A DNA stretch of 64,000 nt from Escherichia phage ETEC-TG: the sequence record OR786310.1; one strand, given 5' to 3'. Of this stretch, positions 551 through 44,154 are shown one piece after another. Positions within the stretch are counted from its first letter, which is position 1. The number at the start of each line of letters is the position of its first letter. Made by a program: the position numbers and the translations under genes. The notes under the pieces are model-generated. The model had not been told where the DNA came from, did not search any database, and worked only from the letters and a program-made list of their open reading frames with translations.

Positions 551-1204
551 CTATACCAGACTTTCAAGGTATTTGTCAAGGGCTTCTTGATCACCTTGAC
601 AAACATAGCAACGGAAGTCTTGAGCCGAAGGTTGTTTATTTTCATCCCAGTCCCAATAAACATTACCCTTATAACGTGAACCAGGAAACTCAAAAGAGGC
701 TGTATGTGTAATGTACCCTGGGCCACCAGTGAAATCACAGAATGAGAATTGGGGGTATGCCGCCTTTACTGCCTCAATAAACCAAGCTTTACGATCTAAA
801 GCTTCATTGATGCTATACGCATGTCTCTCCATTTCTTCCCACGTTTTCCAGACACTTCTCTCATCAGGAGAAAAGACAAGCCATTCTGGAAGGTATAGAG
901 TGTCATAGTAATCATCATATTCGATCTCGGAGGCGCACGAAGCTGACTCCTCCAGTTTTGAGTAATCAAAAGCAGAATATACCCACCAACCATCTTCCAG
1001 TAAGGCTTTGATAGGGACGAAGCCTTTATCAGCATATTGATCGAATTGTTTGACACGGTGGCTTGTGCAGTCTTCAAACTCACATTCTAAACGATATGCA
1101 CCTTTTCGACGAGCCTCAAGACCGTGTGTACTGAAAATAACAACACTTCCTTCACCATCATTACGATCTACTTGATAAGCAACCACTGGTTTTGAATTTG
1201 ACAT
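551..1204 (-). CDS. hypothetical protein
   Basis: 217 aa ORF; no recognisable motifs by eye. Confidence 0.4.
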   Translation of the reverse strand: MSNSKPVVAYQVDRNDGEGSVVIFSTHGLEARRKGAYRLECEFEDCTSHRVKQFDQYADKGFVPIKALLEDGWWVYSAFDYSKLEESASCASEIEYDDYYDTLYLPEWLVFSPDERSVWKTWEEMERHAYSINEALDRKAWFIEAVKAAYPQFSFCDFTGGPGYITHTASFEFPGSRYKGNVYWDWDENKQPSAQDFRCYVCQGDQEALDKYLESLV

Positions 1205-1887
1205 TATTTCTCCTTATCTAGAAGATTGTTAGACAAAAACACTGCACGAGCAAAACCACGTGCGGTTAGTGATCTAAGTTGTTTTGTTTTTGCACTAGCT
1301 CCACCTAAGCTTTTCCAACCCCAGAAGCAGCCTATATGATCTACTGGTTTCTTCACTGGTTGAACAAAACCGTTGCCGTGCCAAATACAAGTTTTCTTTG
1401 TATACCCATCACGGGTAGGCATTTTAGGATGAAAGCTTCCTTCCTCTTCAAACAAATACCCACCATACTCATAAGGATCAAAGTAAAAATCGGGTTTACG
1501 CCATAAGGTTGAAAGTTTACCTACTGGGTTCTCAATCATCCAAGGAACATTATATTTGTTACCCAAAGCTTCCACTACACGAATATTAGCTAAAGCTTCA
1601 TCCAATGCCTCTGTGCTGCGTTCGTGTTTGCTACCACTACCTGCTAACATAGTGCAAGGTGGAAATCCAAAAATAATATCGGGTTTAGGTATCCCATGAT
1701 CTTCAGGGTTGAATGTAGAATCTATCCAGGCATTCACATAGGTTATGTTTGGGTGCTCCATCCTAACCTCGTATTTACCGTGATCCCCTTCATCAGCGTT
1801 TACACAAAAACATTTGTGACCTGCTTCGGCATAACGTAACACCATGATCCCAGATCCGTCAAACATAGACAAAACTGTTTTACTCAT
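1204..1887 (-). CDS. putative DNA (cytosine-5)-methyltransferase-like protein
   Basis: Motif I-like SMFDGSG, Cys-containing GFPPCT (PCQ-like) and ENPVG (ENV-like). Start moved to internal ATG (MSKTV) preceded by GGAGG, overlapping upstream stop as ATGAGTAA. Confidence 0.45.
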   Translation of the reverse strand: MSKTVLSMFDGSGIMVLRYAEAGHKCFCVNADEGDHGKYEVRMEHPNITYVNAWIDSTFNPEDHGIPKPDIIFGFPPCTMLAGSGSKHERSTEALDEALANIRVVEALGNKYNVPWMIENPVGKLSTLWRKPDFYFDPYEYGGYLFEEEGSFHPKMPTRDGYTKKTCIWHGNGFVQPVKKPVDHIGCFWGWKSLGGASAKTKQLRSLTARGFARAVFLSNNLLDKEK

Positions 1888-2293
1888 TACCCCTCCATTC
1901 AAGACAAGCCATAACTTTACGCCAATCACTTTCTGTAAGAAAAATCTCGTTTGCTTTCTTCCACAAATCTAAATCGTGAAGGGTTGGAATACGATATGTT
2001 AGTTCACAGAATCTATGCTCTTCTTCTGTAATATAACCAAAATGCAGAGCCACATCGTGAAACCAACACCAACCATGCATCTCTCGAACAACATGGTCAT
2101 GTTGAGACATTATTTTATGCCGTAAACCTAACCAACAAGGAACAGATACTTTAGTAGTCTTTAATCTGTGATCAACAGTATTAGAGTATTCAATAATAGC
2201 TGTCAGTTTCAATCGTGCTTTTTCTAAATCCTCATGGGTCACTTTGAAATAACTTTCTGAAAGATATCCACACATATTAATAACCTCCTTCAA
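1880..2293 (-). CDS. hypothetical protein
   Basis: 137 aa ORF, translationally coupled to neighbours. Confidence 0.4.
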   Translation of the reverse strand: MKEVINMCGYLSESYFKVTHEDLEKARLKLTAIIEYSNTVDHRLKTTKVSVPCWLGLRHKIMSQHDHVVREMHGWCWFHDVALHFGYITEEEHRFCELTYRIPTLHDLDLWKKANEIFLTESDWRKVMACLEWRGNE

Positions 2294-3218
2294 AAGGCTT
2301 AACTACATGTTGATTAGCTTTAAAACGTTCAACATAGTCGTTTTCGCCCATGTTTTCATATAGCTTAGTAATAACATAAAAGTTTTCCCAAGCATATTCC
2401 CTAAACCAACCACTAGTGATGGATGTGCAGACTTTAGATAAAGCCATTATAAAACTTTGCTTAGGGGTTGGACCTCCGATCTCTTCACCGAAAGGAATTT
2501 GTGAACGTTCCAAAGCCAAAACACACGCTTCTTCATAAACACCTAACAGGCGCACATGTTTTGGTTGAGCAAAAAACTTTTCTTTGCTGGTCATAACTTC
2601 ACTTCCATCTTTCATATAAGATTTATATGCTGGAGCATCCATTACCGCGATTGCTTCATGGATAGAATCATGATCATAAACATACGGAACCTCATCACCT
2701 TTAAAGAAGTCTTTACTTTTTACGTTTAAGTTCGGATGAGAGTAAGTGTATGTTTCTTTCTCACGCAACTCATAAATACTCTTAAGATTTTCTGGGATCT
2801 TTGCACCCAGTGACCGCATGAAATGAATATCTTTCATAGTTTTAAAGAAGTGAGGACTATCCTTTTTAAAACGATGACTCATTTTAAGAAGGTAGAGCAC
2901 ATCTAAAGGAGCAACAACATGTCCAGCGTAAGTTCGACGAACATCATCAGAATCTTCACAATAACTAATCAAAGCTTCTGTGCTATCTCCTTGAGAAGCA
3001 ATATCGTATTCCAAATGTGCACCAGCTATCATTTTGACATGGCCTTTGTTTCCTTTACGTTCTACAAGTTCAACAAACTCATCTTGAGAGAACATTTTTG
3101 ATAATTCTTCCCACTCTTGTTCTGTACACAGGTAATCTAAATCTACACAAGGGCGATACAAGTCTTTTCCCATGTCCATAGCATGAATTTGTAATGCACG
3201 GCTACCAATTAACACCAT
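2277..3218 (-). CDS. hypothetical protein, possible nucleotidyltransferase fold
   Basis: 313 aa; N-terminal GS followed by CVDLDYL resembles the hG[GS]...[DE]h[DE]h signature of Pol-beta-like NTases. Confidence 0.4.
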   Translation of the reverse strand: MVLIGSRALQIHAMDMGKDLYRPCVDLDYLCTEQEWEELSKMFSQDEFVELVERKGNKGHVKMIAGAHLEYDIASQGDSTEALISYCEDSDDVRRTYAGHVVAPLDVLYLLKMSHRFKKDSPHFFKTMKDIHFMRSLGAKIPENLKSIYELREKETYTYSHPNLNVKSKDFFKGDEVPYVYDHDSIHEAIAVMDAPAYKSYMKDGSEVMTSKEKFFAQPKHVRLLGVYEEACVLALERSQIPFGEEIGGPTPKQSFIMALSKVCTSITSGWFREYAWENFYVITKLYENMGENDYVERFKANQHVVKPFEGGY

Positions 3219-4567: not shown

Positions 4568-5058
4568 AAAACCTCCTCAATCTTGTAGTTTGACTCCATC
4601 TCCAACACATTTCCACGAACGTCTCTCCGAAGAAAGGCATAAGCTTTATTAGGTATTGTAGACTCATATTTAACCATATCTGGCACAGCAAAAGATACTA
4701 CTACTCCTGCTGGGCTTCTGTCAAGAGCCTTATTAATATTTCTAAGGATATCGTTAGCCAAGATTTCTGCCAATTCTCCAAGAACGGTTTCGGTTATATC
4801 TTTATATCCCATTAAGTATTTGTTGATATCTTTCATCTCTGTATTGTTCAGAGTATAATCCAAAGGATAGAAATTCAAAGCGGAGTCACTTTTATGTGTC
4901 CACATGAAATGCACCCGATCCGAGCAGAATCGTAACCCTCTTTGAAGAATATCTTCTACAACAGGCAGAATTTCTTTTGTCACATCATTAACCATGTTGT
5001 AATCTAAGATTTCTGCCAAGTTTGTTCTTTGTTCACCACGTTTACGTTTAGGAATCAC
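4546..5058 (-). CDS. hypothetical protein
   Basis: 170 aa ORF. Confidence 0.4.
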   Translation of the reverse strand: MIPKRKRGEQRTNLAEILDYNMVNDVTKEILPVVEDILQRGLRFCSDRVHFMWTHKSDSALNFYPLDYTLNNTEMKDINKYLMGYKDITETVLGELAEILANDILRNINKALDRSPAGVVVSFAVPDMVKYESTIPNKAYAFLRRDVRGNVLEMESNYKIEEVLWQSSDQ

Positions 5059-5629
5059 TTGTTATTGCCCTCATTACCAAAGGTCGTAGAAAATCGTAAA
5101 TCTCTTGTTTTGTTTTCCCACGAATGTTTAAACAAGGAACATTATTGGCTTTAGCTATCTTCCAAGCCGTAGCTGTTCCACCTTTTGCATCTCCATGTTT
5201 ATCAGTATTAGCACAAGCCAACAAGAAACATGATGGAGCAGGATTCTCCAAATCTCTACCTAACACTTGATGCACATTACGTTGGTGCAATTTTCTAGCA
5301 CCCTGCTTAAGCTTTTCATAGGCTGGGTGAACATCTTTGATCCATTGCACAGAGATAGCATAGTTCATTGTATCTGGTTTTGCAAGAACAATAACATCCC
5401 CTGGAATCTGATTACCTTTGAAATTTTCCCAAGGAACATAAATCTCCTTGTTAGTAGGATTTTCAGACTCTTGGACACCTGTTTCAAAAGCAGAATCACT
5501 ACCCTCTGCCTTCCCAGACCTTAATTTAAACCCAAGGTTTGAAAGCCATTTCCCTATGCCTACCATCAAAGCCCACTCTTCTTCGGATATGTCTCTACTT
5601 CCAACTCCCGTATAGAACAGTTCTGCCAT
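5048..5629 (-). CDS. hypothetical protein, possible DprA/SLOG-like Rossmann fold
   Basis: Start at MAELFYTGVGSRDI preceded by GAGGTGA; G-x-G-S-R motif resembles DprA/Smf-type nucleotide-binding proteins. Confidence 0.35.
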   Translation of the reverse strand: MAELFYTGVGSRDISEEEWALMVGIGKWLSNLGFKLRSGKAEGSDSAFETGVQESENPTNKEIYVPWENFKGNQIPGDVIVLAKPDTMNYAISVQWIKDVHPAYEKLKQGARKLHQRNVHQVLGRDLENPAPSCFLLACANTDKHGDAKGGTATAWKIAKANNVPCLNIRGKTKQEIYDFLRPLVMRAITSDS

Positions 5630-5636
5630 AATCACC

Positions 5637-5945
5637 TCAACAAGTAATTTCAAAAGGTGTATAGGGTTCCGTATTTCTCATGATCCAAGGACTGCTAGGA
5701 TTGCTCGGATCATAAGGGCCAAAAGGTTTTATGGTAGGTTGTGTTTCTTTCTTCTGAATCTCTTCAAAAATACGACGAAGTTCAGAATATTCTTGATCCA
5801 CCATAAGATTCGGTGCATCTGATTCTACAGCTTGCAGGTTATCTTCCTTAAGAACAATCTCACGAACAAGATTAACATCTTCTGTTTCTAAGATAACTTC
5901 TTTACGGATATTGCCTACACTTTGAATAATTGTAATCTTATACAT
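5637..5945 (-). CDS. hypothetical protein
   Basis: 102 aa ORF. Confidence 0.4.
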   Translation of the reverse strand: MYKITIIQSVGNIRKEVILETEDVNLVREIVLKEDNLQAVESDAPNLMVDQEYSELRRIFEEIQKKETQPTIKPFGPYDPSNPSSPWIMRNTEPYTPFEITC

Positions 5946-6688
5946 TAATCCTCCTCAAGAGTTGAATAAAATTGAAGACCACCGTCCATATCGAAATAAG
6001 CAAATGTTAAGTTATTATTGAACACAGATCCAGTATCCATATAAACACGATTCGCATTGATAACAGGTGTTTTTACATAAGAGTGTCCATGAAACACATA
6101 ATCCACACCCATCACAACAGGAAGTTTCATTCCCTCTTTAGCACAGTCTACCATATCTCTGTCCCACATAAGTGCTTCAGCAAAACGGTTTTCCTGTGTT
6201 TTTGTCATCTTCGAAATGTATTCTGGAATATCTGTTACAGGGAGATATTCCAAAGAAGATGGATACCCACCATGAATAAACGCAAGTTTCATGCCTCTGT
6301 AGTTAACAATGAGAACAACAGGTAAATCTTCTGTCATCATTGCTAAGGCTGTAGCTCCTTCTTCACCACATTCTTCAAAGACCGTATATCCTCCATTTTG
6401 ATACCAACACTCGTAGTAGCTACGATCTCCTTCCAGCATACCTTTAATCATCATGTCTTCATGATTGCCACGAATAGCGTAGCGATTGTGTTTACGAGTA
6501 AATTCTAAAACACAACGAAAGTTTTGCTTTCCACGGTCAGTAAGATCTCCTAGAGATACAACCACATCTGTATCTCGGATACCTAACTTTGCCTTTCCTT
6601 TTTCATACAAATTATAACAACCGTGTAGATCTCCAATTATAAAAAGATCTTGATCGCTTTTAACAGTAATTTCTCTGTGTATGATCAC
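5945..6688 (-). CDS. Ser/Thr protein phosphatase (calcineurin-like metallophosphoesterase)
   Basis: GDLHGCYN, GDLTDRG and RGNHE motifs typical of lambda-PPase/ApaH-type phosphoesterases. Confidence 0.75.
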   Translation of the reverse strand: MIIHREITVKSDQDLFIIGDLHGCYNLYEKGKAKLGIRDTDVVVSLGDLTDRGKQNFRCVLEFTRKHNRYAIRGNHEDMMIKGMLEGDRSYYECWYQNGGYTVFEECGEEGATALAMMTEDLPVVLIVNYRGMKLAFIHGGYPSSLEYLPVTDIPEYISKMTKTQENRFAEALMWDRDMVDCAKEGMKLPVVMGVDYVFHGHSYVKTPVINANRVYMDTGSVFNNNLTFAYFDMDGGLQFYSTLEED

Positions 6689-8303: not shown

Positions 8304-8813
8304 TTAAACAAAATAAAATGGTTGAGAGAGGCCCAAACGATTCTTTGGGTCGTATACATACCAAGCGTATGCTGTCTTATCTGTTCCACCTGCAACAAAC
8401 GAAGGCCGTTCTGAAAGGACTATAAGGTTTGTTGGTGGATTCTTTTGATGGAACTCTCGTCGTTTCTTTGACTCCAAGAAGCCCAACCGAAGAAGATAAA
8501 TACAAACATCCGCCTCTTTTAAGCTCTTTTCCAAGAACTCCATTGCTAACTTAAATGGAGGGTTTGTGATTATAATGTCGGGACGATTTTCCCATTCATG
8601 ACTAAAATAATCTTTACCTTCTTCAAGTTCGCAATATTCTGAACCTTCAGGAAAATGGCGATAAATCGCTTCAGCTTCACCTCTGCAAGGTTCTGCAAAA
8701 ACCCAACCTTCTTCCTTTAGATTTTTGAAATCTATAACACTAAACAAACTATTGATTGCTTTTTGCGGTGTCGGATAATAATCGCTCGTTGGGCGATCAT
8801 AATCTAATGCCAT
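8304..8813 (-). CDS. putative DNA methyltransferase (N6-adenine or N4-cytosine type)
   Basis: DYYPTPQ (AdoMet-binding-like) and NPPF (motif IV of amino-MTases) in a 169 aa protein. Confidence 0.55.
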   Translation of the reverse strand: MALDYDRPTSDYYPTPQKAINSLFSVIDFKNLKEEGWVFAEPCRGEAEAIYRHFPEGSEYCELEEGKDYFSHEWENRPDIIITNPPFKLAMEFLEKSLKEADVCIYLLRLGFLESKKRREFHQKNPPTNLIVLSERPSFVAGGTDKTAYAWYVYDPKNRLGLSQPFYFV

Positions 8814-9276: not shown

Positions 9277-9969
9277 TTAAATAGCGGTTTCTTCGAAATC
9301 CGCCACATTTACGAGATTAATATTTTCAGATTTAGAAGTCAAGTTGTTTTCTGCAACAGATTTTTCTTCAGTATCCGCCTCGTTACCTGCCACGTTACGA
9401 GGTTCTTCTTCACCGTAGGGATTACCGAATTTCAAAAGATTGATTAATTCTTCTTTGGAGAAGTTTTCTAAATCATCATCTGTTAATTCAATAATCTCAT
9501 CTTGTTCTTCAATAAATGTTTCACCACCAGAAAAAGCATCTCGCTTTTTAGCTACTTCCATAGCCTGTTCTGGTGTTGCTCCTGCATCAAGAGCAGCTAA
9601 AGCAAAGTCTGACCCGCTTCCTACCGCATAATATTCTTCATCAATCGGATATGCACGTGTTGGGTTGTTACCTTCGTGCAGGAAAATACGTCCGTCTGGA
9701 TGAACAACAAGTGCAATAAACTCTTCATCTTCTTTATCTGGATCAGAGTGAATCATCAAACCAGGGACAGCATCACGTGCTGCTTCGCACTGTAGATTTT
9801 GTTCAAACCATTGAAAGAAAGAAAGCACGGAGGTCAGACGACCAGCACCACCTACAAGGTAATCTCCAATTTTTCGGACCTTTTTGAAATTAATAGAATC
9901 TACACGTCCACCAAAAGTTACCTTACCGTCACTCAAAATCTTATTTTTGGTCGCAATAATTGTCGTCAC
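9277..9969 (-). CDS. HslV-like (ClpQ) Ntn-hydrolase peptidase with acidic C-terminal extension
   Basis: MTTIIATKNKILSDGKVTFGG...KKVRK...GGAG...GSGSDFALAALDAG follows the HslV pattern (Thr2 nucleophile, GSG motif); about 90 extra D/E-rich residues at the C-terminus. Confidence 0.6.
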   Translation of the reverse strand: MTTIIATKNKILSDGKVTFGGRVDSINFKKVRKIGDYLVGGAGRLTSVLSFFQWFEQNLQCEAARDAVPGLMIHSDPDKEDEEFIALVVHPDGRIFLHEGNNPTRAYPIDEEYYAVGSGSDFALAALDAGATPEQAMEVAKKRDAFSGGETFIEEQDEIIELTDDDLENFSKEELINLLKFGNPYGEEEPRNVAGNEADTEEKSVAENNLTSKSENINLVNVADFEETAI

Positions 9970-11963: not shown

Positions 11964-12224
11964 TTACTCCGCAATTTGAGCCATGAGATCACGCAGTTCG
12001 GTAAAACCGCCTACGTATGTTACCTCCCCGTTCACTTCAGACAGAATTTGTGGAAATGTGCGTGGAGGAACTCCGGTAAGATCAACAACTGTTTTAGTCA
12101 TTGATTCTAAATCATAGTCTTGATCAAGACTTAAATATTCAAACTGTTTATTGCGCATGGTTAATAGTTGTTTTGACATTTCGCAAAATTGACAGTTAGG
12201 TTTACCAAAAATTACAAATTCCAT
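11964..12224 (-). CDS. glutaredoxin/NrdH-like redoxin
   Basis: 86 aa with N-terminal CQFC (CxxC) active site in thioredoxin-fold context. Confidence 0.75.
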   Translation of the reverse strand: MEFVIFGKPNCQFCEMSKQLLTMRNKQFEYLSLDQDYDLESMTKTVVDLTGVPPRTFPQILSEVNGEVTYVGGFTELRDLMAQIAE

Positions 12225-13066
12225 TACCTCTCCTTATTAAGTAATACTGCTAAAGACTGTTCAATACCTTTATTTAAATCTGATTTTGTAAGATAGTGAC
12301 TGGTTACTAGTTGTGACTTCACCGGACGTGCTGCTGGAGCATTATAGGTTGAAGCTGATACCGCCGATATCTTAACAGGTTCTGGCATCTGTGTCAAGAT
12401 CTTTTCCGCAAACTCCGCCCAAGAAATAAAATGGCTTCCTGCAAAATGGTAAGTCTTAACAGACCTTGACCAACCTGTTTTTAATACTTCAAAAATAGCT
12501 TCTGCTAAATCTGGAGCATATGTTGGACAAGAGAACTGATCAGCAACAATAATAAAATCACGTTGTCCATCATTATAGCGAGACAACATCGTTTTTAGAA
12601 AGTTATTTCCAAATTCGCTATATACTGAGGCTGTTCGAATAATATATGCATTTGGGTTAACTCCTCGCACCATTTTTTCACCAAGTTCTTTCGTATACCC
12701 ATAATTGTTTATTGGGTTAGGTGTAGTATCTTCAAAAATAGGATGAGAATAATTAAAAATATAGTCTGTAGAAATATGCACAAAATCAATTTTAAGTTTG
12801 CTGCACACTGCCGCAATATTTGCAGGTCCATACGCATTAACAGCCAAAGCAGTAGCAAAATCATGTTCCGCTTTATCTACAGCCGTATAAGCAGCGCAGT
12901 TAATAACACCGTCTACATAATCTTCAACAATAGCGTTTCGCACAGCTTCAAAATTTGTAATATCTACACGTTCTTTAGGATAAATTAAAGATACATTTGA
13001 AGGAACCACTTTACGTAAAGCTTGTCCCAGTTGTCCATTACCACCCAATACCAGATATGTTAGCAT
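12224..13066 (-). CDS. rmlD: dTDP-4-dehydrorhamnose reductase
   Basis: N-terminal Rossmann GGNGQLG, STDYIF and YGYTK (YxxxK) motifs typical of RmlD. Confidence 0.8.
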   Translation of the reverse strand: MLTYLVLGGNGQLGQALRKVVPSNVSLIYPKERVDITNFEAVRNAIVEDYVDGVINCAAYTAVDKAEHDFATALAVNAYGPANIAAVCSKLKIDFVHISTDYIFNYSHPIFEDTTPNPINNYGYTKELGEKMVRGVNPNAYIIRTASVYSEFGNNFLKTMLSRYNDGQRDFIIVADQFSCPTYAPDLAEAIFEVLKTGWSRSVKTYHFAGSHFISWAEFAEKILTQMPEPVKISAVSASTYNAPAARPVKSQLVTSHYLTKSDLNKGIEQSLAVLLNKER

Positions 13067-13626
13067 ACACCCTCACTACGCAACTGTTGAAAAGATTTAG
13101 CCATTGCATCTTTTGTTGATAAGATAGGTTTAAAATCTTCATCAAAAATCATATCAAAGCCCCAATCGATCCCTATATCAGGATCATCCCAACGTAAACT
13201 TTGTTCGCTAGAAGGGTCGTATGGAGTTGTGCATTTGTATTCAAAGATAGCATCCATACTCAAAACTATAAAACCATGTGCCAAACCAGGTGGAAGCCAA
13301 AATTGCGTATGGTGTCGTGCACGAAGAACAACACCGTCCCAAGCACCGTAAGTTGGACTATCTTTACGTAAATCTACAGCGAAATCCAATACTTCTCCAC
13401 TTACACAACGAACAAGCTTACCTTGCGGGTTGTTTGTTTGGAAGTGCATTCCTCGCAAAACACCGAAGTTTGATTTAGACATGTTATCTTGAACGAAAGT
13501 TTGTCTACCAATAATATCTTCGTATTTTTGTTCATTGTATGTTTCTAAAAAGAAACCACGATCATCTTTATAAACGTCTGGTTTGATAATTACCGCACCT
13601 TCAATTTTTGTTTTTTCTACTTTCAT
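13060..13626 (-). CDS. rmlC: dTDP-4-dehydrorhamnose 3,5-epimerase
   Basis: DDRGFFLETY and RGMHFQ cupin motifs characteristic of RmlC. Confidence 0.85.
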   Translation of the reverse strand: MKVEKTKIEGAVIIKPDVYKDDRGFFLETYNEQKYEDIIGRQTFVQDNMSKSNFGVLRGMHFQTNNPQGKLVRCVSGEVLDFAVDLRKDSPTYGAWDGVVLRARHHTQFWLPPGLAHGFIVLSMDAIFEYKCTTPYDPSSEQSLRWDDPDIGIDWGFDMIFDEDFKPILSTKDAMAKSFQQLRSEGVC

Positions 13627-15592: not shown

Positions 15593-16249
15593 TTAGCCTC
15601 GAAATACTGTTTTTGTTTCCGCCAGGTGCCAATAGAAATCCGCCTTGTTTACAAGAGTGTTGTACACCTCTGGATAAAAATGTTCTTCCTCTTTGTAACG
15701 ATCCGCTGTTTCCCTGATTGACTTAGCTTTATCCTTTAGCCAAGCGAAGTGTGCCTCTTCCTCTGTAGCGAAGTAGCCTAAATGCTTACCTTTACTTCCA
15801 GAAGCTTTTGCATAAATCTTACCATCTTTCCTAACATGTGCTCCTAGTAAGTATTTTCTTTCATACCTTTTAGCATAACTTAAGAGTGTATTTATGTAAG
15901 GAGGAACAAACCTACAATATTCAGGACAATAAACAGTATTTCCTTCAAGAACAAGATCTTTATCTAAAACAAAGCCTTCCACGCTATGTTCTTGATACCA
16001 GTTATCAAAGTTTGAAAAGGTGAACCAAGCATCACACACGGTAACATCTTTATAACCTGGTCTAATGTTTTCCATACGATATGCACGATTAAACATACCT
16101 TTCCAAGCTGCATAAGAAGGGTCTATGAATGTATTAACCCTTTTCCCATTGATAACACCACCTTCCCACAATCTACGTTCAACATCCACAATCAAGGGGA
16201 TTTCTCCCCTCTCTGTGAGAACGGTAACTTTACGTTTACCCTTCTTCAT
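15593..16249 (-). CDS. putative HNH-AP2 homing endonuclease (possibly degenerate)
   Basis: Sits between nrdA and nrdB; C-terminal LGYFATEEEAHFAW is AP2-like; central VLDKDLV...CPEYCRFV resembles an HNH-family core with altered catalytic residues. Confidence 0.5.
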   Translation of the reverse strand: MKKGKRKVTVLTERGEIPLIVDVERRLWEGGVINGKRVNTFIDPSYAAWKGMFNRAYRMENIRPGYKDVTVCDAWFTFSNFDNWYQEHSVEGFVLDKDLVLEGNTVYCPEYCRFVPPYINTLLSYAKRYERKYLLGAHVRKDGKIYAKASGSKGKHLGYFATEEEAHFAWLKDKAKSIRETADRYKEEEHFYPEVYNTLVNKADFYWHLAETKTVFRG

Positions 16250-19280: not shown

Positions 19281-20279
19281 TCACCATTTAGTATGATTTG
19301 TTAAAAGTTGACGATGTTGAATCCAGCCTTTGAAATTGCCAGACCAAAACTTACCATTACGATCTACATGGGTAATACCTGGTTCCCAAGAGTTAAAATC
19401 CCAAGGAGCATTGATAAACAAATCTTCAAAACAGTTCTCCCCATATTGTTCGCATGTTTCTTGCATTGGGGTGGCTTGATGTTCAAACGGAGAAGCATGA
19501 ACCTTGCGCCCAGTCAGCAAACGACCATAGATATCTAAAGCTTTATCTTTAGTTGCATTCAAACGACGATAACTAACCTGTGCACAACACGAAGCTGAAA
19601 TAGCTTTGGCTTCTTCCAAAGTAAGCACAACAACTTCTCCAGATTCATCTTGAACATAGTATCCACCAAAAACAAAATGATCGTCACCTTCTGTGCCAAT
19701 ATTATCATAGAAATGGTTTACATAAGGTGTGTGCCATTGCCCTGGTTTCAGCACTTCTGGTGTAGATTCTTCATACTCTTTGTGCATCTCTTTAGCCAAA
19801 GCTTCGATAGTAGGATCGGCTTCTTTGTCATCACGTAGCCACCAGAAATTTTCATATTCTGTTGCTGTCAGAACTGTTTTAATTCGTTGGAAAGGTTCCA
19901 GAAGACGGTTTGCAACTTGTTTGTGGTACCCTGCCAAAGAGAATTCTTCTGCAAAACGTGCTGCACTAAGCGCGGCAAGATCCCACCACTCTTGAGCAGT
20001 ATAACCTGCATCAATAAGAGCATCATGGTCAACACCTTTGTCCTGCATACCAGGTTGGTTAGCCCCGAAACGATAAGGACGAGCAGGCTGATTTCGAACC
20101 ATTTCGATCAGTGTTTTAACAGGTATAGCACGGCTAGAAGCAGCATTACGACTGAACAGGCGGTGAGTCATCAGTTCTGAATGAATAATACGTGGATATT
20201 CAAGTTCGAAAGTTACAATCTCTTTTCCGTCTTCAGTGATGGAATGTGCAATAATACTAGCCGAAATCTGTTTTGTCAT
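19281..20279 (-). CDS. thyX: flavin-dependent thymidylate synthase ThyX-like
   Basis: ELMTHRLFSRNAASS matches the ThyX RHR-x7-S signature with the first Arg replaced by Thr. Confidence 0.7.
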   Translation of the reverse strand: MTKQISASIIAHSITEDGKEIVTFELEYPRIIHSELMTHRLFSRNAASSRAIPVKTLIEMVRNQPARPYRFGANQPGMQDKGVDHDALIDAGYTAQEWWDLAALSAARFAEEFSLAGYHKQVANRLLEPFQRIKTVLTATEYENFWWLRDDKEADPTIEALAKEMHKEYEESTPEVLKPGQWHTPYVNHFYDNIGTEGDDHFVFGGYYVQDESGEVVVLTLEEAKAISASCCAQVSYRRLNATKDKALDIYGRLLTGRKVHASPFEHQATPMQETCEQYGENCFEDLFINAPWDFNSWEPGITHVDRNGKFWSGNFKGWIQHRQLLTNHTKW

Positions 20280-20288
20280 TTTTTCTCC

Positions 20289-20897
20289 TTAGTTTTTAAA
20301 ATTGTTCAAAGTGTTAAAAACATCCAAACATGTTAGCCACTGATCTTCTAAACCTGTGATCACAACATTTGGTTTTTTCTTTAGTTCTTCTAGATGGTTA
20401 TCTTTATAAGGCGTATTAAAATATATTTTAACCACTTCATCTGGAAAATATAGTAGGTTATCAGCCCTGTCATCTATGGCTATATCACAAGGCAATAAAT
20501 ATTTTTCTTTTGTAGCAAAAAAGCCGTTACCAGATCCTTTGCTAAAATCAATCGTGTCCAATGTTCTTAAAACATGTTTATGTTTAGAACTTAAGTGACC
20601 ACCTTTTGTCACACTTGCGATCAAAAGATTGCCACCTTTCCTTGAAACATACTTTAAGAAATCTGGCATACCTGGAACAAAACCCATTGTATCGTAGAGA
20701 TGAGGATTATCCAGAAATCCGTAAGGATCTATGTTGAACTCTTCCCTGAAACCAGGAAAATAGTTGGTAAGATCGTAATCTGCATTTTTTGTGAATGTGT
20801 CGATTTTAACACCAAGGCCACTAATCTTATTCAACCATTCTAACCAAGCAACATCTAACGGAGCCACAACTAAATCCCAATCACATACTATCTGCAT
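20289..20897 (-). CDS. putative HAD-family nucleotidase
   Basis: N-terminal IVCDWDLVV (DxD-type HAD motif I) and later DDR motif. Confidence 0.45.
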   Translation of the reverse strand: MQIVCDWDLVVAPLDVAWLEWLNKISGLGVKIDTFTKNADYDLTNYFPGFREEFNIDPYGFLDNPHLYDTMGFVPGMPDFLKYVSRKGGNLLIASVTKGGHLSSKHKHVLRTLDTIDFSKGSGNGFFATKEKYLLPCDIAIDDRADNLLYFPDEVVKIYFNTPYKDNHLEELKKKPNVVITGLEDQWLTCLDVFNTLNNFKN

Positions 20898-42556: not shown

Positions 42557-43036
42557 ATGGAACTCAATAAAGATACACTGTGGGAACTCTTCAAAACCTT
42601 CGCTGGTTTTAAAGAGAATTCTGAATCCCAACAAGATTCTATACCATCTCAAAAACCTGAAACTCTAGTCAAACAAAATAAATTTGATGAAGAAAAGATG
42701 CAGGTTATTGAGGTCTTGTATTGTCCACCTGAAGAAGACGATCTCCACGGAGAGCGCATGTCTGATTTGGAAATCAGGAAGATGGTTGACAACTTCAATG
42801 AGAATATTACCAATATTAGCGGTAATCTTGGTCATATGAAGAACACCGATAAGTTTGCTCCAATTAAAGCTTGGGTAAATGAAGTCGATTGTTACATTGG
42901 TGACGAACTCGTTGTGGAAGGAACTCCCCTCGTTAAAATCCAATTCAACGACCCTGAATTATATCAAGCTCGTAAAGACGGCGTTCTTAAAGGTTTGAGT
43001 ATAGGCGCAATGGGCGTTAAAGTCAAGAAGGACTAA
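42557..43036 (+). CDS. hypothetical head morphogenesis protein
   Basis: 159 aa ORF between portal and scaffold genes. Confidence 0.4.
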   Translation: MELNKDTLWELFKTFAGFKENSESQQDSIPSQKPETLVKQNKFDEEKMQVIEVLYCPPEEDDLHGERMSDLEIRKMVDNFNENITNISGNLGHMKNTDKFAPIKAWVNEVDCYIGDELVVEGTPLVKIQFNDPELYQARKDGVLKGLSIGAMGVKVKKD

Positions 43037-43038
43037 TC

Positions 43039-44154
43039 GTGGCAAATACATATTTAACTAACGTAGACTTTTCAGGAAAAGCTACGGAAGAGTCACTAGG
43101 TGCTCATATTGCTTACACTTTTGATTTTCAAGGTGGAGCGGCATCTGGTTATAATACCCCCCTTTTATTTAAGTCAGACGGATCTCCAGACATAACTTTT
43201 GAAAAGTTAGAAGCTCTCACTAAAATGGGAGAAGATGTTACAGAGTTACGTAAAAGCTATATTCAACAAGTGATGGATCGCATTTCTGAAAAAGTGCGTG
43301 AAAAATTTGAAGCTGGTTGGGATTGGGTTTACGTTATTGATGCTGACTTCGATGCGAACGTTGCAATTTTCTGTTCAGATAACGGTATGTTCTCTGTTGG
43401 CTTTAAAGTTGACGGACTGAATGTTGAAGTTGAAGAGGTTGCTAAACCTGTTGTTCGTGTTACTGATTATCAAGTTGTTGATGGTGATGTAATGATCTCC
43501 ATTGATTTCTTTGAGGACGTTTTAGACGATGCTTTGAGTAATCTCGTTAAGAGTTCCTTGAAACAAAGTCAAGTTAAAGATTATTTAGTGAAAGCTCACG
43601 CTAAAGCTAATACAAACTCTGTGGATGCAGAGGCTAACCCCGCAGGTGATAAATCTGCAAACACAACTGGAATCAATAAAGGAGAAACCCCTTTGGAAAA
43701 TATCAACAAAGAAGAATTCCTGAAATCTGCTGAATTCCAAGAACTGATGAAAGCACAGATCGCTGAAGCTGTAGAAAAAGCAGCAGCAGATGCACGTGCA
43801 GCCGCAGAACTTGAAGCACAGGAAAAAATCGCTAAGGCAGAACAGGAAGCAGAAGAACTTCGTAAAGCTGAACAAGCTCGTATCGAAGAAGAATATACAA
43901 CTGTTGTTAAATCCTATTCTTTCGTAGAAGAAGACAAAGTTGAAGCTCTCGTTAAATATCTGGTAGACAATAAAGATATCGCTGAAACTATCGTCAAAGC
44001 ATTCGAAAAAGCACGTGCAGAAGTGGACGCAGTTAAGAAAGAATTTGGAACAGAACGTGGTGTTGACGTGATCAATACTCAACCTGTAGCTAAATCTTCT
44101 TCTGAACTGATTAGTCAGAAAGCTGCTGAACTTAAAAAAGCCCAGAAACAATAA
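43039..44154 (+). CDS. putative head scaffolding protein
   Basis: GTG start after RBS; 371 aa, acidic, long A/E/K-rich helical C-terminus (AAADARAAAELEAQEKIAKAEQEAEEL). Confidence 0.5.
   Translation: MANTYLTNVDFSGKATEESLGAHIAYTFDFQGGAASGYNTPLLFKSDGSPDITFEKLEALTKMGEDVTELRKSYIQQVMDRISEKVREKFEAGWDWVYVIDADFDANVAIFCSDNGMFSVGFKVDGLNVEVEEVAKPVVRVTDYQVVDGDVMISIDFFEDVLDDALSNLVKSSLKQSQVKDYLVKAHAKANTNSVDAEANPAGDKSANTTGINKGETPLENINKEEFLKSAEFQELMKAQIAEAVEKAAADARAAAELEAQEKIAKAEQEAEELRKAEQARIEEEYTTVVKSYSFVEEDKVEALVKYLVDNKDIAETIVKAFEKARAEVDAVKKEFGTERGVDVINTQPVAKSSSELISQKAAELKKAQKQ

Follow-up and report, generated by a model that had tools for sequence, protein, structure and literature searches.

The 64,000-nucleotide stretch of Escherichia phage ETEC-TG analysed here (OR786310.1; hereafter the window) carries near its left end a compact gene of the phrog_757 family, 1204..1887 on the minus strand, which probably encodes an orphan DNA cytosine-5 methyltransferase. 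The 227-residue product begins MSKTVLSMFDGSG. Plus-strand readings of this open reading frame (ORF) and of a second methyltransferase ORF at 8304..8813 were ruled out because their translations are riddled with stops, placing both genes on the minus strand. A GGAGG Shine-Dalgarno sequence lies directly 5′ of the ATG at 1887; an alternative GTG start at 1929 was dropped because homologues begin at the same methionine as the ATG. The gene sits in a minus-strand block, 551..2293, in which it is translationally coupled to an upstream gene (phrog_16551) and a downstream gene (phrog_8514), both unassigned in function. The upstream ORF, 1880..2293, shares 8 nucleotides with the start of the methyltransferase gene, and the stop of the latter interlocks, in the sequence TAATG, with the start codon of the next ORF downstream, 551..1204. 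Over its first 6 kb the window matches Escherichia phage dw-ec at 99.7% identity and Mt1B1_P17 at 99.4%; these two Phapecoctavirus (Stephanstirmvirinae) phages have ~150-kb genomes, and the window is Phapecoctavirus DNA. In the RefSeq genome of Mt1B1_P17 (NC_052662), the two methyltransferase genes are gp216 and gp233, both named "DNA methyltransferase". Across Phapecoctavirus genomes, the gene at 1204..1887 is kept at 93-100% identity with its frame intact. No restriction-enzyme or hypermodification partner was seen near it, either among the genes annotated in the window or around two prophage copies. The prophage copies lie within replication modules and have no nuclease partner, and the enzyme is therefore an orphan.

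Profile searches, which a preliminary description of this DNA had proposed as a check, matched ORF 1204..1887 to phrog_757, "DNA methyltransferase", with an expectation value (E) of 3.5e-84 (residues 1-225 on profile positions 13-223 of 247), and ORF 8304..8813 to phrog_799 (E 2.8e-59). Given these matches and the conservation of the motif residues, the motifs in the two ORFs are not chance resemblances. Homologues of the 1204..1887 product were found by tblastn in 1,487 phage records, chiefly Escherichia, Klebsiella and Salmonella phages, and phrog_757-type proteins are abundant in Drexlerviridae phages of ~50 kb. When 1.84 billion cluster representatives were searched with a profile at a threshold of E <= 1e-3, 1,811 clusters at 50% identity were recovered, nearly all of 200-260 residues. 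Because 227 residues is an ordinary length for such a family, the ORF, which the preliminary description had noted as short, is not truncated. The gene has been annotated before and falls into a known, experimentally sampled phage methyltransferase family, and there is little new in it as a discovery. Three records labelled "Campylobacter phage" (MG065687, MG065655 and MG065674) contain homologues 48-62% identical to the window protein; the genomes, of 48 kb and 140 kb, have sizes found in enterobacterial phage groups, and their host labels may be wrong.

The preliminary description had recognised in ORF 1204..1887 the motifs FDGSG, FPPCT and ENPVG, in the order typical of cytosine-5 methyltransferases and at the correct coordinates, and our alignments agree. 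Conservation was counted over 90 diverse aligned family representatives, or over a close set of 34 homologues. Motif I, FDGSG (residues 9-13; 1849..1863, minus strand), corresponds to the S-adenosylmethionine-binding loop after strand 1 and is invariant in all 34 close homologues. In the broad family this motif reads [FYC]-D-x-[TS]-G, and FDGSG is confined to the subgroup of the window protein. Motif IV, FPPCT (residues 75-79; 1651..1665, minus strand), lies within GFPPCT (residues 74-79) and holds the predicted catalytic Cys78, found in every one of the 90 representatives; Pro76 is kept in 84. Motif VI, ENPVG (residues 119-123; 1519..1533, minus strand), is equally constant, with E119 and P121 in 90/90 and N120 in 86/90. 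The superfamily order of motif I (FxGxG), motif IV (Pro-Cys) and motif VI (ENV) is thus represented by FDGSG, PPC and ENP. FDGSG pairs with FAGLGG of M.HhaI, M.HaeIII and Dcm, and ENPVG aligns with the ENV of the same three enzymes.

Towards the C-terminus, YTKKT (residues 162-166; 1390..1404, minus strand) sits where motif VIII is expected and, judged by sequence, would be the equivalent of the canonical QxRxR (Y162 90/90, K164 89/90, T166 88/90). It is followed by RSLTARGFAR (residues 205-214; 1246..1275, minus strand), a block resembling motif IX in the form RSLT(P/A)RGFAR and comparable with RKLHPRECAR in M.HhaI and RRLTPRECAR in Dcm; R205 is kept in 89/90, S206 in 81/90, G211 in 88/90 and A215 in 86/90. 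hhalign places this C-terminal block on M.HhaI 266-282 (RKLHPRECARV, motif IX), although not significantly (E 0.32 for the block alone). The window protein also retains the family-invariant W169 and P177. Apart from Ala209, it carries the full family signature, consisting of the PxCT Cys, the ENP Glu, Y-x-K-x-T and R-S-x-T-P-x-G. Only ~26 residues separate YTKKT from the C-terminal block, and for this reason the recognition site is probably short.

An AlphaFold model of the protein, computed with the 34 homologues, reached a mean predicted local distance difference test (pLDDT) score of 82 and a predicted template-modelling (pTM) score of 0.85. Low pLDDT is limited to residues 83-87, right after the catalytic Cys. 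Cytosine-5 methyltransferases have a mobile catalytic loop following this residue. The best 40 Foldseek matches to the model are DNMT3A or DNMT3B throughout (top E 7.9e-8, probability 1.0); Fmu and NSUN5 align with it over just 134-139 residues. The modelled structure has the C5-methyltransferase fold, and together with the catalytic motifs it supports the assignment as a cytosine-5 methyltransferase-type protein. In sequence profile searches of the PDB, the best matches to the family are always C5-methyltransferases at non-significant E-values, namely M.HaeIII with the 34-sequence alignment (E 0.57) and DNMT2 with the 90-sequence alignment (E 0.11), both sub-threshold. When the protein is compared with M.HaeIII, DNMT2, Dcm and M.HhaI, motif I, Pro-Cys and ENx are always in register, but the matches are never significant.

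Relatives of the window protein have been studied experimentally. The BASEL phages JakobBernoulli and KarlJaspers (Bas06) each have a gene of 711 bp that bears the annotation "Dcm-like C5 cytosine methyltransferase", to whose products the window protein is 50% and 51% identical, respectively. In JakobBernoulli, the genes on either side encode unnamed hypothetical proteins. Phage K42, a KarlJaspers strain with a genome 95.4% identical to Bas06, yielded mutants escaping retron Ec86 in which the 711-bp dcm gene was disrupted (bioRxiv 10.1101/2023.08.16.553469; Cell Rep 2024;43:114857). Expression of K42 Dcm was toxic solely in the presence of the retron, identifying Dcm as the trigger, and liquid chromatography coupled to mass spectrometry (LC-MS) revealed high 5-methylcytosine (5mC) in the Ec86 multicopy single-stranded DNA (msDNA) with wild-type K42 Dcm but not with a C82A/E128A/K175A/K176A mutant (bioRxiv 10.1101/2023.08.16.553469). 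K175 and K176 were named substrate-binding residues by the same authors (bioRxiv 10.1101/2023.08.16.553469). K42 Dcm is nearly identical to the KarlJaspers enzyme, and in our alignment C82, E128, K175 and K176 of the KarlJaspers and JakobBernoulli enzymes line up with C78, E119, K164 and K165 of the window protein. Dcm is encoded by 34 of 35 Ec86-sensitive phages. A further relative, gp52 of Pantoea phage AAS23, is 52% identical to the window protein over its full length (E 2e-81). It showed no conserved domain by BLAST and an HHpred match of 99.7% to 3ME5, a Shigella C5-methyltransferase structure, and AAS23 virion DNA was reported to be Dcm-methylated from a panel of restriction digests including EcoRII (PMC8004638).

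These relatives also bear on the residue after the catalytic Cys. The preliminary description had noted Thr in place of the usual Gln (PCT for PCQ) and had taken it as a hint of some other chemistry at C5. The Thr is present, but it is the norm of the family: 81 of the 90 representatives have Thr at this position, five Asp, three Glu and one Gln, and PxCT occurs in 116 of 150 family representatives. DNMT3A and DNMT3B, the true methyltransferases nearest in structure, also lack the Gln and have PCN; in DNMT3A the stretch is GGSPCNDLS, close to the phrog_757-family consensus of FPPCTDLA. Because Thr is the family norm, DNMT3A itself has PCN and a PPCT-bearing homologue yields 5mC by LC-MS, PCT is no sign of different chemistry, and that idea is corrected here.

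Taken together, our results make it probable that ORF 1204..1887 encodes an active DNA cytosine-5 methyltransferase, an orphan enzyme from the compact "Dcm-like" family of phages, working by the standard Cys-addition mechanism. For the window protein this is based on family membership, predicted fold and conserved catalytic residues; formation of 5mC has been demonstrated in relatives, and from these we infer activity, specificity and role. A Rossmann-type core would bind S-adenosylmethionine through motif I together with a residue, acidic or amide, that closes strand 2. With the target cytosine flipped out of the helix, Cys78 of PPCT would attack C6 and Glu119 of ENP would contact the cytosine. 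The methyl group would then be moved to C5 and the enzyme freed by beta-elimination. The expected product is 5mC at short sites in replicating phage DNA and, incidentally, in host DNA.

Several observations weigh against this assignment. Neither methyltransferase ORF has a significant match in Pfam or NCBIfam, and for ORF 1204..1887 NCBIfam returned no match at all. The score of ORF 1204..1887 with PF00145 is 11.2 bits, below the cut-off of 22 and covering residues 4-89 only, and 1 of the 90 family members matches that profile (E 0.0067); a very large phage methyltransferase family, ~1,800 clusters at 50% identity, thus escapes both PF00145 and NCBIfam. Comparison by hhalign with E. coli Dcm, and with a profile of M.HhaI and nine Dcm orthologues, gave non-significant E-values of 0.05-0.16; a large protein search with a profile of M.HhaI and Dcm brought up nothing beyond near-identical Dcm orthologues from enterobacteria, without useful diversity. 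The canonical QxRxR reads YTKKT, position 209 is Ala in the window protein and in 4/90 representatives as opposed to Pro in 85/90, and no motif X, the GN[SA]V helix that closes the cofactor pocket, is recognisable by sequence alignment because the protein ends 13 residues past the motif IX-like block. As for the relatives, the digestion of AAS23 DNA does not, in our judgement, separate phage from host Dcm methylation, and the CCWGG specificity proposed for them rests on analogy with host Dcm and on the msDNA mutants. The window holds 71 CCWGG sites against 65.6 +/- 8.2 expected, neither avoided nor enriched and uninformative on specificity. On the methylome of Phapecoctavirus or Stephanstirmvirinae DNA, or its restriction, a literature search found predictions only and no measurements, and in the BASEL study Vequintavirinae and their relatives were described as exceptionally susceptible to restriction-modification systems.

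Some of these observations would also suit a remnant with little or no catalytic activity, retained to bind DNA or to regulate, or simply drifting. The replacement of Pro by Ala in the motif IX-like block is rare in the family, the stretch following the catalytic Cys is shorter than its counterpart in Drexlerviridae enzymes, and the relatives are restriction-sensitive. However, every family-invariant residue is retained (C78, E119, P121, Y162, W169 and P177, and in addition K164, T166, R205 and G211), and the 93-100% identity across Phapecoctavirus, the unbroken frame and the good ribosome-binding site make such a remnant quite improbable. Methylation of RNA rather than DNA, for example of cytosine in transfer RNA (tRNA) in the manner of Dnmt2, is suggested by the DNMT2 structure (4h0n) that heads the PDB matches of the broad family profile, and by a cluster of 11 tRNA genes in the phage, two of them annotated pseudogenes. 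That match spans motifs I-IV only and falls short of significance. RNA 5-methylcytosine enzymes of the RsmB/NSUN type are marked by Thr-Cys in motif VI, the Cys being a second catalytic one; the window protein is not of this type because its motif VI is ENP and has no such Cys. Moreover, relatives methylate DNA in the form of msDNA, phage DNA of one relative was reported Dcm-methylated, and the family abounds in Drexlerviridae phages of ~50 kb; AAS23, for one, carries no tRNA genes. An RNA target is very unlikely.

Transfer to cytosine C5 of some group besides methyl also deserves consideration, for example carboxymethyl from carboxy-S-adenosylmethionine, the cofactor supplied by E. coli CmoA. 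CmoX (PMC12783734; PDB 8yf3) is the only natural enzyme known to put such a different group on C5 of cytosine with this fold, and it functions in E. coli on host CmoA (PMC12783734). The motif X element that discriminates between cofactors (Asn304 in M.HhaI, Arg350 in CmoX) cannot be located in the phrog_757 family, and the K42 study apparently monitored 5mC alone. Nevertheless, K42 Dcm clearly raises 5mC in dependence on its catalytic residues. CmoX candidates are defined by SPPC and by an Arg replacing M.HhaI Asn304 in motif X and typically lie near phage CmoA and amide-ligase genes, whereas the window protein has FPPC, and across the gene region in a near-identical genome the annotation shows no phage CmoA, no amide ligase and no ParB-like neighbour. 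Phages of the Stephanstirmvirinae are sensitive to Druantia III and to ARMADA II. According to one study, Druantia III-A still engages methylated DNA and is blocked by other chemical modifications, and the sensitivity of Stephanstirmvirinae to it therefore argues against hypermodified DNA in this group. A CmoX-like hypermodification is, in our view, very unlikely.

If the protein is an active cytosine-5 methyltransferase, its likely role is to shield phage DNA from restriction enzymes that are blocked by 5mC at its sites. The preliminary description had raised modification of the phage DNA as a protection against restriction; site-specific methylation is plausible, but broad protection is unlikely, and whatever protection there is must be narrow, since the restriction systems that have been tried act strongly on related phages. 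For Drexlerviridae, the BASEL study saw no simple relation between the presence of methyltransferase genes and resistance to restriction. Methylation by the enzyme might also betray the phage to retron Ec86 (Eco1), a sensor of msDNA methylation. The assignment connects a gene of Phapecoctavirus with the one trigger known for this retron, and these therapy-relevant phages may thus be sensed by it. The predicted 5mC in Phapecoctavirus DNA may also matter for McrBC-type restriction and for methylation-aware sequencing.

The second methyltransferase gene, 8304..8813 on the minus strand, encodes a 169-residue protein unrelated to the first. A separate amino-methyltransferase with DYYPTPQ and NPPF had been described here, and this is borne out. 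DYYPTPQ (residues 11-17; 8763..8783, minus strand) contains Thr15, invariant in 42 homologues, and the nearly invariant Tyr13 and Pro16. NPPF (residues 84-87; 8553..8564, minus strand) is catalytic motif IV of amino-methyltransferases, and T83-N84-P85-P86 is invariant in the same homologues. The conserved set comprises YPTP, EPCRG, the acidic E62, DY and TNPPF, so that (Y/F)xTP, EPxxGxG and NPP(F/Y) follow in the order of the gamma class with a matching fold; the protein is thus a gamma-class amino-methyltransferase core. Weak Pfam matches to EcoRI_methylase and MTS are centred on the NPPF stretch. All 169 residues belong to the catalytic core, with no target-recognition domain among them. Homologues occur in 543 phage records, at 85% identity in phi92 and ~48% in Vequintavirus phages. 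The sequence points to N6-adenine methylation of DNA as the most likely activity, with RNA as another possible substrate, and our search found no experimental data on this family. METTL5 and PH1948, the small proteins nearest to it in structure, are established or putative RNA enzymes.

A third gene had been brought into the argument for modified DNA, a ThyX-like flavin-dependent thymidylate synthase homologue. Such a gene is present at 19281..20279 on the minus strand, matching phrog_85 "thymidylate synthase" (E 3.8e-109) and PF02511 (E 1.6e-8; 35 bits against a gathering cut-off of 24.8). The PF02511 match covers profile positions 59-191 only, so that the protein, long at 332 residues, corresponds only to the last two thirds of Pfam's Thy1 profile. 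A strict scan for the ThyX signature RHRxxS found nothing, and the gene was located via Pfam; in place of RHRxxS it has the slightly atypical M-T-H-R-L-F-S (THRLFS). Its relevance does not hold up. ThyX has no bearing on DNA modification because it makes ordinary deoxythymidine monophosphate, and the gene is functionally unlinked to the methyltransferases. Next to it, 20289..20897 (minus strand) encodes an NT5C-like 5'-deoxynucleotidase. Another gene, 42557..43036 on the plus strand, is called "DNA methyltransferase" in RefSeq (NC_052662 gp148) and in phrog_1530. We rejected it as part of the system: it is portal-adjacent, lying between the portal gene and a head-module gene at 43039..44154, and it matches head-maturation proteases, so its methyltransferase name is probably wrong.

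Other genes of the region were noted in passing. Just upstream of the methyltransferase operon, 2277..3218 (minus strand) encodes a 313-residue protein with DUF7277 and DUF7275 (E 2.1e-75), whose N-terminus (GSRAL...DLDY) is reminiscent of a nucleotidyltransferase motif. A Sir2-like gene of the reference genome has its end right at the left edge of the window. A block of early genes encodes a DprA-like protein (5048..5653), a NinI-like Ser/Thr phosphatase (5945..6688) and an HslV-like peptidase (9277..9969), all on the minus strand. RmlD-like (12224..13066) and RmlC-like (13060..13626) proteins of the deoxythymidine diphosphate-rhamnose pathway, also encoded on the minus strand, match Pfam at E 2.8e-73 and 1.1e-66, respectively. 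An HNH endonuclease ORF (15593..16249, minus strand; phrog_953, E 1.5e-56) lies between the genes for the small and large subunits of ribonucleotide reductase; it is probably a mobile homing endonuclease because near-identical Mt1B1_P17 has no gene there.

Among known C5-methyltransferases, E. coli Dcm, M.HhaI and M.HaeIII of PF00145 share with the window protein the order of motifs I, IV, VI and IX and the catalytic Cys and Glu. They differ from it in length (320-470 residues), in a large target-recognition domain and in having motif X, PCQ and QxRxR. The catalytic domains of DNMT3A and DNMT3B are the closest structural match, at 14-19% sequence identity. DNMT3 catalytic domains have a small target-recognition region, as in the compact phage family; unlike the window protein, DNMT3 enzymes have a clear motif X, extra regulatory domains and partner proteins, and a CpG target. 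The compact PxCT family might represent a distinct minimal branch of C5-methyltransferases, with a motif IV like that of DNMT3, ~26 residues for recognition, no motif X and unusual specificity or cofactor use, an idea that we consider unlikely. Were it true, the open pocket for the cofactor and the very small recognition element might result in very short or relaxed specificity, the enzymes might act on DNA that is single-stranded or folded into hairpins, retron msDNA for example, or accept cofactors besides S-adenosylmethionine, and the marks set on DNA by the copy in Phapecoctavirus would be of a kind new for these phages. Of the studied relatives, AAS23 differs from the window phage in host and genome type. 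KarlJaspers and K42 are 51-kb Drexlerviridae siphoviruses, whereas the window phage is a ~150-kb Phapecoctavirus myovirus, and the window protein has Ala instead of the Pro of their enzymes at 209 and a shorter segment after the catalytic Cys. Even so, the KarlJaspers/K42 Dcm belongs to the same family and is of similar length (236 against 227 residues), PPCT, ENP and KKT are common to both, and the four residues mutated in K42 Dcm are all conserved in the window protein.

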